DNA from: a virus
Taxonomy: Duplodnaviria; Heunggongvirae; Uroviricota; Caudoviricetes
Length of the DNA stretch: 38,517 bases
IMG/VR virus record: IMGVR_UViG_2713897161_000001
Span: 1 to 38,517 of that record
Direction: 5' to 3' (one strand)
The notes under the pieces: generated by a model
Databases searched by the model: none
Told to the model about the DNA's origin: nothing
What the model saw: the letters and a program-made list of their open reading frames with translations, nothing else
Position numbers and translations under genes: made by a program
In this document: positions 3,758 through 17,355 of the stretch, piece after piece
Numbering within the stretch: the stretch's first letter is position 1
Layout: each line of letters begins with the position of its first letter

Positions 3758-4141
3758 TTACCTCGCTGTCAGTTGTTTTGATTTCCGGTAGCCTGCCGCG
3801 TAAATGGCTACGTTTGGAAGACATACACCAGTTTCTGGTTGCTTATGTCCAAACTCATTCGCGTACACAATGGCCGCTCGCTCCAGATTGCGTCTGTATT
3901 CTTTCTGTTGCCAGATCACGTCCTGTGCCATGAACTTAATTGGCTTAGCGTCTTCTATGCGCTCAGGCGTTTCGTGAGTACCTTTAGCCTGAATCTGCGC
4001 TCTGCTTAGAGTAGGGCGGTGTAATACTTCTGAACTTATTGCTTCTTCGCGGGCCAGCACGCCGTTAGCTAATGCCTTTGCCTTTAAACGCTCACGACGA
4101 CGAGAACGTGAATTGCCTTTGAACTGAGTTCTGCGTGTCAT
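3758..4141 (-). CDS. N: N-type transcription antiterminator (P22 gene 24-like)
   Basis: Arginine-rich motif near N-terminus (RSRRRERLKAKALA) and C-terminal end ...YAAGYRKSKQLTAR resembling P22 N as recalled; canonical boxB hairpins lie upstream in both nutL and nutR positions. Confidence 0.75.
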   Translation of the reverse strand: MTRRTQFKGNSRSRRRERLKAKALANGVLAREEAISSEVLHRPTLSRAQIQAKGTHETPERIEDAKPIKFMAQDVIWQQKEYRRNLERAAIVYANEFGHKQPETGVCLPNVAIYAAGYRKSKQLTAR

Positions 4142-6307: not shown

Positions 6308-6541
6308 ATGAGTAATGAACTACTACGCTGGCGAAAAGAGGCTTCTAGTGAGGAATGGAAGCGACTCGCCGCATTAGCGAAAACTTCAGTTGGCTATCTT
6401 GACCAGATTGCATATGGATTTCGAAGAGCTTCCCCTGATAAAGCGAATGCAATCGAAGAAGCTACTCGTAATTTCACGGCCTATAAACCCGTGAAAAAGG
6501 AAAACCTGGTGTTCGTATCGCGTAGAGCATCAGCAGCATAA
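6308..6541 (+). CDS. cro: Cro-like transcriptional regulator
   Basis: 77 aa ORF divergent from cI, first gene of rightward operon; family call by position. Confidence 0.6.
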   Translation: MSNELLRWRKEASSEEWKRLAALAKTSVGYLDQIAYGFRRASPDKANAIEEATRNFTAYKPVKKENLVFVSRRASAA

Positions 6542-6548
6542 GTAACAC

Positions 6549-6594
6549 CGCTCTTTTCACAATGGACATTCGTCCTACGTCGCTGACAAAGCGA
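6549..6594 (+). promoter_or_regulatory. nutR (boxA CGCTCTTTT and boxB hairpin TCGCTGACAAAGCGA)
   Basis: boxA-like CGCTCTTTT at 6549-6557, boxB stem-loop at 6580-6594, between cro and cII. Confidence 0.6.
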
Positions 6595-12260: not shown

Positions 12261-12463
12261 CGTTCTCAGTAAAAACCATTCCAGACATGCTCGTTGAAGC
12301 ATACGGAAACCAGACAGAAGTAGCACGCAGACTGAAATGTAGTCGCGGCACGGTCAGAAAATACGTTGATGATAAAGACGGGAAAATGCACGCCATCGTC
12401 AACGACGTTCTTATGGTTCATCGCGGATGGAGTGAAAGAGATGCGCTATTACGAAAGAATTGA
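12257..12463 (+). CDS. ninH: NinH
   Basis: 68 aa [36 protein letters not shown]... recalled as lambda NinH; ATGA overlap with rusA stop. Confidence 0.8.
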
Positions 12464-13112
12464 TGGCAGCAAATACCGAAATATTTGGGTAGTTGGCGAT
12501 CTGCACGGATGCTACACGAACCTGATGAAAAAACTGGAGACGATAGGATTCGACACCAAAAAAGACCTGCTTATCTCGGTTGGCGATTTGGTCGATCGCG
12601 GTACAGAGAACGTCGAATGCCTGGAATTAATCACATTCCCCTGGTTCATAGCTGTACGTGGAAACCATGAGCAAATGATGATTGATGGCTTATCAGAGTG
12701 CGGAAACGTCAATCACTGGCTGCTTAATGGCGGTAGTTGGTTCTTTAATCTCGATTACGACAAAGAAACTCTGGCTAAAGCTCTTGCCCATAAAGCAGAA
12801 GAACTTCCGTTAATCATCGAACTGGTGAGCAAAGATAAAAAATATGTCATCTGCCACGCCGATTATCCTTGTGACGAATACGAGTTTGGAAAGCCAGTTG
12901 ATCATCAGCAGGTAATCTGGAACCGCGAACGAATCAGCAACTCACAAGACGGGATCGTAAAAGAAATCAAAGGAGCGGACACGTTCATCTTTGGTCATAC
13001 GCCAGCAGTGAAACCACTCAAATTTGCCAACCAGATGTATATCGATACCGGCGCAGTGTTCTGCGGAAACCTCACATTGATTCAGGTACAGGGAGAAGGC
13101 GCGTGGGCATAA
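12441..13112 (+). CDS. Ser/Thr protein phosphatase (lambda PPase-like)
   Basis: Metallophosphatase motifs GDLHG, GDLVDRG, GNHE; sequence from [23 protein letters not shown] recalled as lambda phosphatase. Confidence 0.9.
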
Positions 13113-13621
13113 GAGAACTAAACCTCACCAAAGAACAGCATGAGTGGCTGAATGGCTGGCTTGAACTGTGGGGCGCATGGGTTTATTCAGGTCGTCTGGA
13201 AAAGCGCATGAGCAGCGTAATAGCGAAGTTCATGGAGAGCGTAGAGCCGGGAAGAGTTATGACAAGGCCAATGTGCAATGATGATGATGGAATGTTGATT
13301 TCTCAGGTCGTCGATTCCGTCATGTACATTGACAAGAAAGCCTTTGGCATCCTCCTCAGCTACTACGCTCATGGTTCATCTAAGCGAGCAATTGCATCCT
13401 ACTATCACGCGACTGCAAAGCCACGCAAGATGTGTGGACGTGGTGGCGAGGGATGGAGAAAACCTTCACTGGCAACCTGTAGAAACGAAATTGACGACAT
13501 CCTGAAAGCGTCGTTATTTGTTTTGTACCAGCCAATGCAAAATGCTTTCAAAATGCGTAAACGTGTTGAGAAAGTTAAGCATGTTGCTGTTAAAGGCCTT
13601 GACATGCAATTATCCATTTAG
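13103..13621 (+). CDS. Q: Late-gene antiterminator Q (phage 82-type family)
   Basis: 172 aa with WGAW, CNDDDGM and SYYAHG segments resembling 82-type Q as recalled; located between nin genes and a pR'-like promoter/terminator pair. Confidence 0.6.
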
Positions 13622-13628
13622 CCATAAT
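13599..13628 (+). promoter_or_regulatory. Late promoter pR' candidate
   Basis: TTGACA at 13599-13604, 18-nt spacer, CATAAT at 13623-13628; overlaps the 3' end of Q. Confidence 0.5.
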
Positions 13629-13669
13629 ATTCACATATGCTGCTGCTTTTGCATTCAGCAACCATCACA

Positions 13670-13694
13670 AGCCCACCTCCTGTGGGCTTTTTTG
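13670..13694 (+). terminator. tR'-like intrinsic terminator
   Basis: Hairpin AGCCCAC/CTCCT/GTGGGCT followed by TTTTTG, about 40 nt downstream of the putative pR' start. Confidence 0.55.
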
Positions 13695-13815
13695 CATTCG
13701 CGTGCAATCAAAACAAGAGTCTTAGTGATATGGGCCTGAGATATGGTGGTGGAAACATCGCTCCGCTCTTGGCTGTCATATCTACGCGAACAGGCTCTAT
13801 CCCTAAGGTAAAGCG

Positions 13816-14328
13816 ATGAAAGAAATAAAATTAACGCCAGAAATGGTGCTTTCTGTTGTTGATTACAATCCATCATCAGGCGACTTTCACTGGAGATGGA
13901 GGCAGGGGAGAGAGAGGACCACTTTGACATGGAACTCTCGTTTTGCTTTCAAGAAATGCTCATCAATAAATTCTGATGGGTATTTAATGATTATGATTAA
14001 TGGTAAAGCATACCCTGCTCACAGACTGGCATGGTTGATTGTTTATGGCACCATGCCCGATGGTTTTATTGATCACATCAACAGGGTAAGAACAGATAAC
14101 CGGATATCAAATCTTCGTCTTGTCACTCATTCCGAAAATATGCAAAACAGGAAAATTCAGAAGAATAATAAATCTGGATACCGTGGCGTGTCTTGGGATG
14201 CTAAGTACGGGAAATGGAGAGCAAGAATTAATGCGTCTGGAAAGTGTATTAACCTTGGATACCATGACACTGCCGAACTTGCCGCTGCGGCTTTTGAGGC
14301 AGCCAGAATGAAATATCATACCGTTTAA
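13816..14328 (+). CDS. HNH homing endonuclease with AP2-like DNA-binding domain
   Basis: 170 aa; HNH-like region (DHINRVRTDNRISNLRLVTHSEN) and AP2-like region (SGYRGVSWDAKYGKWRARI). Confidence 0.75.
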   Translation: MKEIKLTPEMVLSVVDYNPSSGDFHWRWRQGRERTTLTWNSRFAFKKCSSINSDGYLMIMINGKAYPAHRLAWLIVYGTMPDGFIDHINRVRTDNRISNLRLVTHSENMQNRKIQKNNKSGYRGVSWDAKYGKWRARINASGKCINLGYHDTAELAAAAFEAARMKYHTV

Positions 14329-14340
14329 AGATGTAAGCTG

Positions 14341-14380
14341 CCGTTAGTGACTCTTAAGTTGCAACGGTGGCTTTTTTTTA
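14341..14380 (+). terminator. Intrinsic terminator after HNH gene
   Basis: Hairpin CCGTTAG...CAACGG followed by TGGCTTTTTTTTATTT. Confidence 0.5.
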
Positions 14381-14383
14381 TTT

Positions 14384-14458
14384 GGGTCAGTCGTATAAAG
14401 GTCATTACGGAAGGCTGTTAACCTTCTTATCGTGGTTCGAGTCCACGCTGTCCCGCCA
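14384..14458 (+). tRNA. tRNA-Asn (anticodon GTT), phage-encoded
   Basis: Manual fold: acceptor GGGTCAG/CTGTCCC (one mismatch), anticodon stem GAAGG/CCTTC with loop CTGTTAA (anticodon at tRNA positions 34-36), T-arm CGTGG-TTCGAGT-CCACG, 3' GCCA. Confidence 0.6.
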
Positions 14459-14463
14459 AACAT

Positions 14464-14539
14464 GCTGGTTTAGCTCCAATGGTAGAGCGGTCGCCTTGTA
14501 AGCGAATGGGTAGCGGTTCAAGTCCGTTAACCAGCACCA
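14464..14539 (+). tRNA. tRNA-Thr (anticodon TGT), phage-encoded
   Basis: Manual fold: acceptor GCTGGTT/AACCAGC, D-arm GCTC-CAATGGTA-GAGC, anticodon loop CTTGTAA, T-arm AGCGG-TTCAAGT-CCGTT, 3' ACCA. Confidence 0.65.
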
Positions 14540-14781
14540 TAACTGAGCCGTAGCCACTGGCTATCCTGAATTCATCAGTGATAGTTATGCTGCGGCCTTT
14601 TACACATGACCTTCGTGAAAGCGGGTGGCAGGAGGTCGCGCTAACAACCTCCTGCCGTTTTGCCCGTGCATATCGGTCACGAACAAATCTGATTACTAAA
14701 CACAGTAGCCTGGATTTGTTCTATCAGTAATCGACCTTATTCCTAATTAAATAGAGCAAATCCCCTTATTGGGGGTAAGAC

Positions 14782-15105
14782 ATGAAGATGCCAGAAAAAC
14801 ATGACCTGTTGGCCGCCATTCTCGCGGCAAAGGAACAAGGCATCGGGGCAATCCTTGCGTTTGCAATGGCGTACCTTCGCGGCAGATATAATGGCGGTGC
14901 GTTTACAAAAACAGTAATCGACGCAACGATGTGCGCCATTATCGCCTGGTTCATTCGTGACCTTCTCGACTTCGCCGGACTAAGTAGCAATCTCGCTTAT
15001 ATAACGAGCGTGTTTATCGGCTACATCGGTACTGACTCGATTGGTTCGCTTATCAAACGCTTCGCTGCTAAAAAAGCCGGAGTAGAAGATGGTGGAAATC
15101 AATAA
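14782..15105 (+). CDS. S: Holin, class I (lambda S-like) with dual-start MKM motif
   Basis: 107 aa [22 protein letters not shown]... recalled as essentially lambda S. Confidence 0.9.
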
Positions 15106-15565
15106 TCAACGTAAGGCGTTCCTCGATATGCTGGCGTGGTCGGAGGGAACTGATAACGGACGTCAAAAAACCAGAAATCATGGTTATGACGTCATTGTAG
15201 GCGGAGAGCTATTCACTGATTACTCCGATCACCCTCGCAAACTTGTCACGCTAAACCCAAAACTCAAATCAACAGCCGCCGGGCGTTACCAGCTTCTTTC
15301 CCGTTGGTGGGATGCCTATCGTAAGCAGCTTGGCCTGAAAGACTTCTCTCCGAAAAGCCAGGACGCTGTGGCACTGCAACAGATTAAAGAACGTGGCGCT
15401 TTACCGATGATTGATCGCGGTGATATTCGTCAGGCAATTGACCGTTGCAGCAATATCTGGGCTTCACTTCCGGGCGCTGGTTATGGTCAGTTCGAGCATA
15501 AGGCTGACAGCCTGATTGCAAAATTCAAAGAAGCGGGCGGAACGGTCAGAGAGATTGAGGTATGA
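15089..15565 (+). CDS. R: Endolysin (lambda R-type lytic transglycosylase)
   Basis: 158 aa recalled as lambda R-like; overlaps S end. Confidence 0.9.
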
Positions 15566-15999
15566 GCAGAGTCACCGCGATTATTTCCGCTCTGGTTATC
15601 TGCATCATCGTTTGCCTGTTATGGGCTGTTAATCATTACCGTGATAACGCCATCGCCTACAAAGAGCAGCGCGACAAAGCCGCATCCATCATCGCTGACA
15701 TGCAGAAGCGTCAACGTGATGTAGCAGAACTAGACGCCAGATACACAAAGGAGCTTGCTGATGCTAACGCGACTATCGAAAGTCTCCGTGCTGATGTTTC
15801 TGCTGGGCGTAAGCGCCTGCAAGTCGCCGCCACCTGTGCAAAGTCAACGACCGGAGCCAGCAGCATGGGCGATGGAGAAAGCCCAAGACTTACAGCAGAT
15901 GCTGAACTCAATTATTACCGTCTCCGAAGTGGAATAGACAGGATAACCGCGCAGGTTAACTACCTGCAGGAGTACATCAGGACGCAATGCCTTCGATGA
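15562..15999 (+). CDS. Rz: Spanin inner-membrane subunit Rz
   Basis: N-terminal TM segment then coiled coil; position after R; embedded Rz1 frame. Confidence 0.85.
15755..15937 (+). CDS. Rz1: Spanin outer-membrane lipoprotein subunit Rz1 (embedded in Rz, +1 frame)
   Basis: 60 aa with lipobox (LGVSAC) and proline-rich segment, entirely inside Rz. Confidence 0.7.
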
Positions 16000-16800: not shown

Positions 16801-17355
16801 ATGGCAAAGCTCACAGACAAACAAGAGCTGTTTGCCCGTGAGTACCTGAAAGATTTAAACGCCACTCAGGCAGCTATCAGGGCGGGTTACAGCGAAAAAA
16901 CTGCTCGCGCCACTGGTAGCGAGAACCTGTCAAAACCTGACATAGCAGATCGCATTGCTGAGCTAAAGGCTGAACGCAATGAAGAGGTAGGTATAGACGC
17001 TGCCTATGTATTGCGACGGCTGACTGAAATAGACCAGATGGACGTGCTGGATATCCTGCTTGCCAATGGCGAACTGAAGCCGATTAAAGACTGGCCCAAA
17101 GTATGGAGAACGACTCTATCGGGTATGGATGTCGTCGAGATGGTATCCGCAGATAGCGCCGCACTTCTGAAGAAAATCAAATGGCCTGATAAGGTTAAAA
17201 ACCTTGAGTTGCTTGGGCGTCATGTTTCTGTTCAGGCGTTTAAAGACAACGTCAAAAATGAAGTGACTGGCGCTGATGGAGGACCAGTCAGAACAGAAAT
17301 TACCAACTTAACGCCGGAGCAGGCTGCAGAGGCGTATAGAAAAATGATGGGCTAA
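16801..17355 (+). CDS. Terminase small subunit
   Basis: 184 aa, N-terminal HTH-like region ([27 protein letters not shown]) typical of small terminase; immediately upstream of large subunit. Confidence 0.8.

Follow-up and report, generated by a model that had tools for sequence, protein, structure and literature searches.

What do an HNH endonuclease gene and two tRNA genes do between the late-gene antiterminator gene Q and the lysis genes of a temperate phage, and how can they sit there with late-gene control undisturbed? We addressed this question in the IMG/VR virus record IMGVR_UViG_2713897161_000001 (Caudoviricetes); the whole stretch analyzed, positions 1-38517 of the record, is referred to here as the window. 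The arrangement that had been read from the sequence, an HNH gene followed by genes for tRNA-Asn(GTT) and tRNA-Thr(TGT) between Q and the lysis cassette, was confirmed by Pfam, ARAGORN, and Rfam. We consider it probable that the locus is a Q-controlled late leader carrying a homing-endonuclease cassette and a tRNA pair directed against OLD, a nuclease of prophage P2, as two independent accessory modules. None of the parts is of a new kind, databases already contain the same sequence, and the basic classification is unchanged: a homing-type endonuclease gene and phage tRNAs at a known plastic site. The housing of a nuclease gene in a late leader has apparently not been described previously. The analysis adds that the nuclease gene is nested between two late-leader terminators, with pause-element repeats at its bounds, and is faithful to this site over deep divergence; that it is preceded by an unannotated family of structured leader RNAs; and that the tRNA pair can be linked to P2 OLD.

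The late promoter pR' was the sole sigma-70-like site on the plus strand in 13400-14900, with 11 of 12 positions matching (Table 1). The curated phage 21 record OL657228 marks a -35 element, two Q-binding subsites, a -10 element, a start site, the sigma-dependent pause element (SDPE) TAAGCTG, the terminator tR' (citing PMID 1704887), and two tRNAs; the layout of the window aligned with it in register, TATGCTG standing for TAAGCTG. From pR', the order was pause element, terminator tR'A, a 125-nt leader, the HNH gene, 4 nt, GTAAGCTGCCG (the beginning of leader B from its +1), and, directly behind the leader B terminator, tRNA-Asn. The late regulatory region of phage 21 was reportedly treated by Guo et al. 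in 1991. The putative Q-binding element (QBE), AATTATCC/ATTTAGCC, was identical in sequence to that of phage L, for which the same Q subtype has been reported (PMC8022706). The late region of phage 21 thus shares with the window the Q family, the -35/QBE/-10 layout, a pause element at +2..+8, the tR'B terminator, and the tRNA pair, whereas the window differs from it by the QBE subtype of phages L and Sf6, a diverged C-terminal half of Q, and leader A with its own terminator plus 698 bp including the HNH gene ahead of the phage-21-type leader.

Table 1. Features of the Q-lysis region of the window, with the basis of each assignment
Feature	Position	Strand	Basis and remarks
NinI gene	12366-13112		Pfam; upstream of Q
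Late-gene antiterminator Q, Q21 family (phage L/Sf6 subtype)	13103-13621	+	Pfam PF06530, 90.3 bits
Late promoter pR'	13599-13628	+	Promoter scan; register with phage 21 record
pR' -35 element TTGACA	13599-13604	+	Aligned to phage 21
Putative Q-binding element AATTATCC/ATTTAGCC	13608-13623	+	Two tandem 8-bp subsites between -35 and -10, overlapping the 3' end of Q
pR' -10 element CATAAT	13623-13628	+	Followed by ATTCAC before the start site
Inferred start site A13635	13635	+	Register with annotated phage 21 start site
Late leader A	13635-13693	+	Would give a ~59-nt RNA when Q is absent
Sigma-dependent pause element TATGCTG	13636-13642	+	Position of phage 21 SDPE TAAGCTG, about +2..+8
Intrinsic terminator tR'A	13669-13693 (stem-loop 13669-13689, T-run to 13693)	+	Terminator scan; free energy (dG) -21.5, z -3.0
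Structured 5' leader of HNH gene	13694-13818	+	Covariance model R1, 127.5 bits
Helix base of leader pairing with the ribosome-binding site	UCUUAG ~13721-13726 with CUAAGG ~13803-13808	+	Predicted
HNH(HNH_3)-AP2 endonuclease gene, free-standing homing-endonuclease type	13816-14328	+	170 aa, ATG..TAA
Promoter-less second late leader B, phage 21/Sf6 type	14334-14379	+	Pause-element remnant TAAGCTG 14334-14340
Terminator tR'B	Stem 14335-14373, T8 14372-14379	+	dG -20.2 kcal/mol, z -4.7
tRNA-Asn (GUU), CCA encoded	14384-14458	+	ARAGORN; Rfam RF00005, 55.3 bits
tRNA-Thr (UGU), CCA encoded	14464-14539	+	ARAGORN; Rfam RF00005, 61.2 bits
Lysis cassette S, R, Rz (holin, endolysin, Rz)	14782-15999	+	Pfam Phage_holin_3_1, Phage_lysis; homology to Sf6/HK629 S, R, Rz
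terS	16801-17355		2.5 kb downstream of HNH gene, lysis cassette between

The original prediction had given the HNH gene a terminator of its own. A strong hairpin with a T8 run was indeed present after the stop codon (14335-14379), but it is the homologue of the phage 21 tR': leader B was 100% identical over 94-96% of its length to tR' of phages 21, Sf6, HK75, and BTP1. A second terminator, tR'A (13669-13693), which had gone unmentioned, was found upstream of the HNH gene. The presumed own terminator is thus the ancestral phage-21-type tR', and the HNH gene is bracketed by two alternative late-leader terminators. Leader A alone constitutes the complete late leader of the HNH-less Hafnia phage yong1 and of a prophage of Escherichia coli WCHEC115106. 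Across 13 lineages, its first 12 nt (ACATATGCTGCT) did not vary and the ~15 nt after them hardly did; one of the compared loci (L067; labels of this type are ours) had a compensatory stem change in leader A.

On this layout, RNA polymerase would start at pR', pause at the -10-like TATGCTG, and, without Q, halt at tR'A before reaching the HNH gene, which would be transcribed only when Q-modified polymerase passes tR'A, that is, during late lytic growth. The scan of the plus strand in 13400-14900 revealed no promoter belonging to the HNH gene itself; therefore, we infer that it is not expressed in the lysogen and depends on Q as a late gene. The terminator tR'B would keep the lysis and structural genes off in the lysogen and, with the late genes so shut off, the cassette would leave late-gene control undisturbed. 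Q-dependent read-through is predicted here from homology. Q21-loaded complexes formed on a template holding only positions -40..-1 of pR'21 and the SDPE in the right position (Yin et al. 2019, bioRxiv 10.1101/651190), so a swapped leader with TATGCTG in register should stay Q-responsive. HK629, in which the region is identical, exists as a deposited complete phage genome. A selfish nuclease gene could in this way inhabit a tightly regulated non-coding stretch of a temperate phage without breaking control, borrowing the Q switch for its timing and bringing a second terminator. The 'putative pR'' of the HK629 record, located inside the HNH 5' leader (window ~13781-13786), was rejected as unsupported by the promoter scan and by homology to phages 21 and L.

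The beginning of the short pR' transcript deserves a separate remark. Its first ~27 nt (ACAUAUGCUGCUGCUUUUGCAUUCAGC; 13635-13661; found also in L006 and L049-L067) were nearly invariant, 2-4 positions varying in L053, L057, L062, and L067, while the promoters were only ~70% identical; the start of leader A is thus conserved beyond what the 7-nt pause element requires. The ~59-nt terminated RNA should be constitutive in lysogens, and it might be a regulatory small RNA like StxS of Shiga toxin (Stx) phages (PMC7547250) or reflect further constraints of Q loading.

The protein encoded by the HNH gene matched HNH_3 (PF13392) over the full profile (1-46) with 66.1 bits against a cut-off of 24.8, the AP2 domain with 35.1 bits against 33.3, and PHROG 99 (E 2.8e-73). 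Its catalytic D-H...N...N motif was intact and aligned with VDH..NLR..N of I-HmuI; in an alignment of 41 sequences, D86, H87, N89, N99, and N111 were invariant and N108 nearly so. The fold resembles that of a solved HNH homing endonuclease with a separate DNA-binding module, the N-terminus being I-HmuI-like. I-HmuI of phage SPO1 (PDB 1u3e), 22% identical in sequence, is the product of a group I intron ORF, and its C-terminus is a helix-turn-helix, whereas the gene of the window is free-standing in a non-coding leader and carries AP2. The class of HNH-AP2 homing endonucleases goes back to Magnani et al. 2004, as cited in PMC10448857. A search of 13000-15200 for group I introns and other Rfam families at E<=1 returned only the two tRNAs and two chance-level matches; an intron-encoded HNH gene was ruled out on this ground. 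Ratios of nonsynonymous to synonymous substitution rates (dN/dS) between HNH lineages were 0.05-0.26 where computable, with purifying selection on the catalytic and DNA-binding residues, and synonymous sites were saturated; the association of the gene with its site is therefore old and the protein is under selection. Outside its clade, relatives were below 46% identity; they occurred in 3783 phage records, and many genomes had more than one (Xp10/Xop411, Felixounaviruses, T1-like phages). Such multi-copy, patchy spread is the usual picture for free-standing homing endonuclease genes. Searches of the open-access literature gave no functional study or description of this HNH gene.

Phage HNH proteins can also serve DNA packaging, as accessories of the HK97 gp74 type working with terminase, and expression together with the late genes, as judged from position, would suit such a role. 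This candidate was ruled out on context, the gene not being adjacent to the terminase genes, and we regard it as hardly credible: terS lies 2.5 kb away behind the whole lysis cassette, the protein has an AP2 domain and an I-HmuI-like N-terminus, HNH relatives co-occur with unrelated terminases (Terminase_2/3; Sf6_terminase/Terminase_6), and most phages with the same late genes are without the HNH gene.

The suggestion that the HNH gene may be a mobile insertion was supported, within the reach of sequence comparison, by a presence/absence polymorphism with exact boundaries and by its family, which is typical of free-standing homing endonucleases. The 704-bp block 13629-14332 was 100% identical to that of HK629 (gp62), where a tRNA-less module replaces the tRNAs of the window, and 99.6% identical to that of the prophage of E. 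coli O127:H6 E2348/69 (E2348C_RS13490, annotated 'HNH endonuclease'). The latter has the same order of Q, HNH, tRNA-Asn, tRNA-Thr, and S; thus, the full arrangement of the window has already been annotated. Of 5426 complete E. coli genomes, 39-41 had the block at an identity of >=99.3%, in every case next to a Q gene, and about half of the occupied genomes, including enteropathogenic E2348/69, also carry both tRNAs. The cassette was present in HK629, E2348/69, and 38 IMG/VR contigs and absent from Sf6, HK75, BTP1, and phage 21. Sf6, HK75, and BTP1 read CATAAT-TAGAAG-GTAAGCTGCC, with the 6 bp TAGAAG where the window has 704 bp. The IMG/VR locus L044 and phage 21 have the same phage-21-type Q, QBE, -10 element, and ATTCGCA and are identical downstream, with a 698-bp indel between; the pause element itself, as the imperfect direct repeat TATGCTGC...TAAGCTGC, marks its two ends. 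The data are compatible with both directions: arrival of the cassette together with a second pause element, or a deletion between the repeats of which the phage 21 leader is the remnant.

The 38 IMG/VR loci had a core, from leader A through the leader RNA and HNH to leader B, that was 97.5-100% identical, and mosaic surroundings: Q was 87-99.8% identical, NinI was present or absent, tRNAs were present, variant, or absent, and the holins differed. The right junction was identical in 41 of 41 occupied loci, and the left boundary tracked the local Q/pR' allele. Intermediate HNH relatives (60-86% identity) were found in E. coli, Pantoea, Serratia, and metagenomes; every one examined lay directly after a PF06530 Q gene and before lysis genes, in a shared layout of pR' (at least four QBE subtypes), leader A, tR'A, leader RNA, HNH, and a second terminator. 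In the L049 type, the second terminator is followed by the exact sequence that follows tR'A in the empty yong1 site. A fixed position in all relatives had been named as evidence against mobility; wherever the gene occurs, even at 60% identity, its position was indeed identical, but most relatives lack it. In the PhiR12 phages and strain NCTC9112, the HNH ORF (open reading frame) is cut off after its first 68 nt, with leader A and the leader RNA still in front of it, a decayed or replaced copy; at these truncated sites (L005, PhiR12_1, 2501-2755; NZ_LR134079, NCTC9112), unrelated Stx-phage-like sequence follows. No match to the HNH protein or to an invariant 23-mer of its leader was found among the GTDB representative genomes, the cassette residing in non-representative E. 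coli strains and prophages. The diverged HNH lineages are without tRNAs, and the same tRNA pair occurs with unrelated virion modules; the HNH and tRNA modules are therefore independent.

A complete Q-HNH-tRNA-holin arrangement was also found on NZ_CP158430.1 (E. coli CDF6, 178,896 bp) at 104126-105525. This replicon is counted as a plasmid and may be a phage-plasmid or a plasmid with a prophage in it.

Most likely, the HNH-AP2 protein would nick or cut HNH-less leaders of the Q21 type in co-resident phages, and the cassette would be copied into the cut leaders by recombination via the flanking Q/pR' and leader/tRNA homology. Several observations weigh against homing, which is suggested here by sequence evidence. 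A candidate target, sought in HNH-less loci and in the rest of the window, gave only chance-level matches of 9-13 nt to the leader/untranslated-region sequence; the cassette is rare, since 1463 complete E. coli genomes have a match to the region and only 41 of them carry it; and with one right junction in all close copies, a single origin followed by ordinary homologous recombination fits equally well. The cassette could accordingly be a passive 'moron' shuffled by such recombination, its nuclease perhaps degrading host or competitor DNA late in infection. The left boundary that follows the local Q/pR' allele and the mosaic state of every neighbouring module would also suit a passenger. We think this unlikely, because the lineage has kept its exact slot to synonymous saturation, across at least four QBE subtypes and several genera, with catalytic and DNA-binding residues under purifying selection; because the family has the archetypal architecture of free-standing homing endonucleases, multi-copy and patchy in lytic phages; and because the decayed PhiR12 copy is what the life cycle of a homing element would predict. 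An element of stronger design is likewise doubtful, namely one in which the HNH gene, its leader, and the flanking terminators have co-evolved with the Q21-type switch as a specialised homing element that targets the pause-element/leader region and is self-insulated by the terminators, the leader RNA allowing translation of toxic accessory genes (HNH, T5orf172, Rha, KilA-N, ANT) from Q-antiterminated transcripts only. If this were true, the phage 21 late leader would be a deletion scar from recombination between the pause-element copies. Natural pairs that differ only by the cassette (HK629 and HK75; L044-type and phage 21) make homing directly testable.

The 125-nt stretch between tR'A and the HNH gene was found to be strongly conserved. 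Mean pairwise identity across nine lineages was 70% in the promoter, 85% in leader A with tR'A, 88% (minimum 80%) in the 125-nt leader, and 65% in the HNH coding sequence; small indels occurred in the leader, and a conserved ORF was absent from it among the lineages compared. An invariant 22-23-mer of the leader occurred only before HNH genes of this lineage. A profile search revealed weaker copies away from HNH genes in HK75, yong1, L051, and others, the copies of the HK75/yong1/L051 type lying just past the terminator after Rz and just before another gene. With the eight HNH-linked leaders only, 11 of 500 shuffles reached the observed covariation. The covariation became decisive once diverged members from other loci were added. 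With 13 leader sequences, RNAalifold gave a 24-pair structure in which 96.4% of cells were paired, against 88.9% in shuffles and 32-47% with slid partners; eight pairs had compensatory changes against 4.0+-1.2 expected, and none of 500 shuffles reached any of the measures. The covariance model found members outside its training set; they precede rha in BTP1, L049, and L051 and, in JLK-2012, lie between a tRNA array and tciA. Among 19 distinct sequences, 20 of 24 pairs covaried and 97.8% of cells were paired, against 76.6% in shuffles (0/500) and 34-44% with slid partners, in an alignment fitted by the model and thus favouring the structure.

The core motif of the leader was present in at least 120 IMG/VR contigs, and in 104 of the 120 listed a T-run lay at a fixed distance of ~58 nt upstream. 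The element had one orientation relative to transcription, following a terminator T-run and ending at a start codon. The genes after it encode Rha, KilA-N, ANT, T5orf172, TciA, HNH, or a membrane protein and, most often, a 198-aa family of unassigned function. Other members were located at 3821-3968 in HK75 (L003), 3908-4051 in yong1 (L006), 6454-6591 and 6789-6925 in L051, 6540-6675 in L049, 3767-3898 in BTP1 (L004), 1782-1910 in JLK-2012 (L115), and in the IMG/VR contigs L116-L235. Rfam 15 gave no match at E<=1 in the window region, and none came up at E<=0.1 where the element lies in L003, L035, and L006; searches of the open-access literature gave no description of such an RNA. By the covariation of its sequences, the leader is a member of a widespread, previously unannotated family of structured RNAs and a candidate new cis-regulatory RNA of lambdoid phages.

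A role of the stretch as DNA, either a recombination 'linker' or a nuclease binding site, would also account for its being far more conserved than the HNH gene, and conserved 'boundary sequences' are annotated at lambdoid module joints in the Sf6 and CUS-3 records. Such a role is very improbable given the compensatory double changes in 20 of the 24 helix pairs, the fixed orientation between terminator T-run and start codon, and the many unrelated genes that the element precedes.

We read the folded leader as a cis-acting element that would sequester the ribosome-binding site (RBS) of accessory genes in late operons. In all members, the helix is flanked by CUUU on its 5' side and by the Shine-Dalgarno AAAG(G) on its 3' side, and the two can pair; the leader of the window would fold into a long hairpin whose base pairs with the RBS, probably keeping HNH translation low or conditional. 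Against this, the RBS pairing was predicted in a 206-nt context and in the alignment and not in the minimum free energy structure of an isolated 135-nt piece. Processing by RNase III or another trigger may be speculated on. RBS-sequestering hairpins are known from T4 I-TevI and gene e, and RNase III-processed leaders from lambda N and the T7 early mRNAs. The analogy with I-TevI and gene e lies in a long 5' hairpin with the Shine-Dalgarno sequence in its base, before a potentially toxic nuclease gene read by read-through; there is no sequence relationship and, unlike the T4 cases, the leader of the window belongs to a conserved family found after terminators in lambdoid late operons.

An ORF of 60 aa at 13637-13819 was rejected as a gene: it had no Pfam match, was interrupted or without ATG in L049, L053, and L055, and lies in a region with 1-4-nt indels among relatives, so it is probably spurious. 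It begins inside the pause element and spans tR'A, and its stop codon overlaps the HNH start codon as ATGA; gene callers join its 3' part to the HNH ORF in L057 and L060 (199 aa).

Both tRNA genes were called by ARAGORN as the only ones in the 38.5-kb window, and their Rfam scores compare with a gathering score of 29 for RF00005. The slightly imperfect stems that had been noticed by hand folding were present, namely U4.U69 and U13.U22 in tRNA-Asn and G27.A43 in tRNA-Thr. The pair (167 nt) was 99.4% identical to that of phages 21, Sf6, and SfI; tRNA-Asn was identical to the phage 21 copy and tRNA-Thr differed from it only at nucleotide 26 (G26 versus A26). Identity with the E. coli host genes was 48/76 for tRNA-Asn (asnT) and 54/76 for tRNA-Thr (thrU); therefore, the phage tRNAs are not recent copies of host genes. 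Identity elements read from the sequence were present for asparaginyl-tRNA synthetase (G73 and GUU) and threonyl-tRNA synthetase (G1-C72, C2-G71, G35, U36, A73), the list of these being reportedly that of Giege et al. 1998. In a Klebsiella phage copy, pairs 6:67 and 7:66 and one anticodon-stem pair of tRNA-Asn and pairs 3:70 and 6:67 of tRNA-Thr were changed on both sides, and the JLK-2012 copies also show compensatory stem changes, which argues that the genes are maintained as tRNAs. Both tRNAs would be cut out of the same late transcript that carries the HNH gene.

Two roles were weighed for the pair. According to a 2025 study, the death of lambda-infected cells caused by the nuclease OLD of P2 prophages is due chiefly to cleavage of host tRNA-Thr(UGU) at paired CNG motifs of the anticodon stem; OLD also cuts other tRNAs, including tRNA-Asn(GUU) (PMC12445682). 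With an altered CNG motif and a shortened stem, the tRNA-Thr of phage 21 (tRNA-Thr21) is resistant to OLD for these reasons, and it protects (PMC12445682). We found that host thrU and asnT have CNG at 28-30 and 40-42 plus A37, a pattern that both phage tRNAs are without. The tRNA-Thr of the window reads UCG and CGA at 28-30 and 40-42, U28-A42 replacing C28-G42, and the G27.A43 mismatch shortens its stem; its UGU anticodon and whole anticodon arm are those of tRNA-Thr21, from which it differs by G26 in place of A26, and it matches the sequence definition of an OLD-resistant rescue tRNA. The definition applies to tRNA-Asn in part: the CNG motif is absent (AAG/CUU) and the stem has its full 5 bp. 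Phage tRNAs with variant anticodon loops evade tRNA-targeting defences (PMC10264068); the pair studied here keeps the 7-nt anticodon loops of the host.

The original prediction proposed that the tRNAs compensate for the codon usage of the late genes, and the counts gave this modest encouragement. Per 1000 codons, E. coli averages are about 39 for Asn, about 54 for Thr, and about 7 for ACA. The late structural genes had 46 Asn, 72 Thr, and 11.2 ACA, the early-left genes 37, 47, and 19.7, and the major capsid gene 64 Asn (20 codons: 15 AAC, 5 AAT), about 61 Thr (19 codons), and 0 ACA. Late genes are thus somewhat richer in Asn and Thr codons than early ones and above the host averages, and the capsid gene is rich in AAC. 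A codon-supply role as the main function is nevertheless rather doubtful, if worth keeping in mind: the enrichment is modest, ACA is absent from the capsid gene and commonest in early-left genes, which are expressed before the tRNAs, and E. coli already has several tRNA-Asn genes. The same pair serves the siphovirus phage 21, the podovirus Sf6, and the contractile-tail-type late region of the window. The codon argument has also been made for phage L (PMC8022706), and there is direct experimental evidence for the anti-OLD role of tRNA-Thr21 (PMC12445682). Given the resistance and protection shown in experiments with this near-identical tRNA, anti-defence accounts for the pair better than codon compensation does and is the better-supported role for tRNA-Thr.

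The anti-OLD role has its own difficulties. The anticodon stem of the phage tRNA-Asn is not shortened; changing the CNG motif alone gave tRNA-ThrU no protection, and the experimental test covered tRNA-Thr21 only (PMC12445682). Moreover, no Pfam match to a RecBCD inhibitor of the Gam type, the trigger of OLD, was found among the early-left ORFs inside the window, which may not hold the whole early-left operon. Codon supply and anti-OLD protection are not mutually exclusive. Most likely, the two tRNAs would act as nuclease-resistant spares for host tRNA-Thr(UGU) and tRNA-Asn(GUU) cleaved by P2 OLD, topping up of Asn and Thr decoding for late proteins being at most a secondary benefit; that tRNA-Asn is such a spare, like tRNA-Thr, is a reasonable prediction from its sequence. 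The tRNA pair would tie to P2 OLD a very common prophage module, the surrounding region having matches in about a quarter of complete E. coli genomes.

The description of the locus as a plastic site proved correct. In relatives, the stretch from tR' to the holin gene holds varied tRNA arrays (Asn-Thr, Asn-Gly, Asn-Thr-Gly, Asn-Phe-Thr-Arg, Asn-Leu), a tRNA-less 'X' module, tciAB, or nothing. In the arrays after tR', tRNA-Asn was always first (L011 3568-3801; L114 1501-1817; L115 1506-1739; Asn-Leu in phage L). The 'X' module of ~200 bp replaces the tRNAs in HK75 (L003 2090-2300), HK629 (L001 2788-2986), and WCHEC115106 (L007 2566-2766). It ends with a T-arm-like hairpin (GCCGGTTCGATTCCGGC) and an acceptor-like 3' end and gave a weak Rfam match to transfer-messenger RNA/tRNA-like families (20 bits, E 9e-5); ARAGORN called no tRNA there. 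The module could be a degenerate tRNA or a tRNA-like element.

The window as a whole is a mosaic lambdoid prophage in which a lambda/P22/HK022-like early region, 97% identical to mEp506, Sf6, and HK022, is joined to a contractile-tail-type late region with a baseplate-type gene set. The late region matches Citrobacter phage Omnitron at 95% identity and Hafnia phage yong1 at 79%, and it carries the terminase small subunit (PF03592), portal (PF06381), and capsid (PF09950) genes and DUF3383; S, R, and Rz are the first late genes downstream of the HNH/tRNA stretch. Yong1, the relative of the late region, also has leader A. Q matched Q21 of PDB 6jnx/6p18 in a phmmer search (E 1e-92); its residues 1-102 were almost identical to Q21, and its C-terminal half was diverged.

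Additional HNH genes crowd the nin/Q region of related prophages. They were found at 2776-3297 in L049 and L051, 1959-2549 in L053, 2544-3098 in L055, 2042-2518 in L056, and 1651-2178 in L062. A second HNH_3+AP2 gene, 37% identical to that of the window, overlaps the start of Q, and HNH_3 genes adjoin ninG. Q thus sometimes has nuclease genes on both sides, which recalls the idea of nucleases at the boundaries of exchange (PMC10448857).

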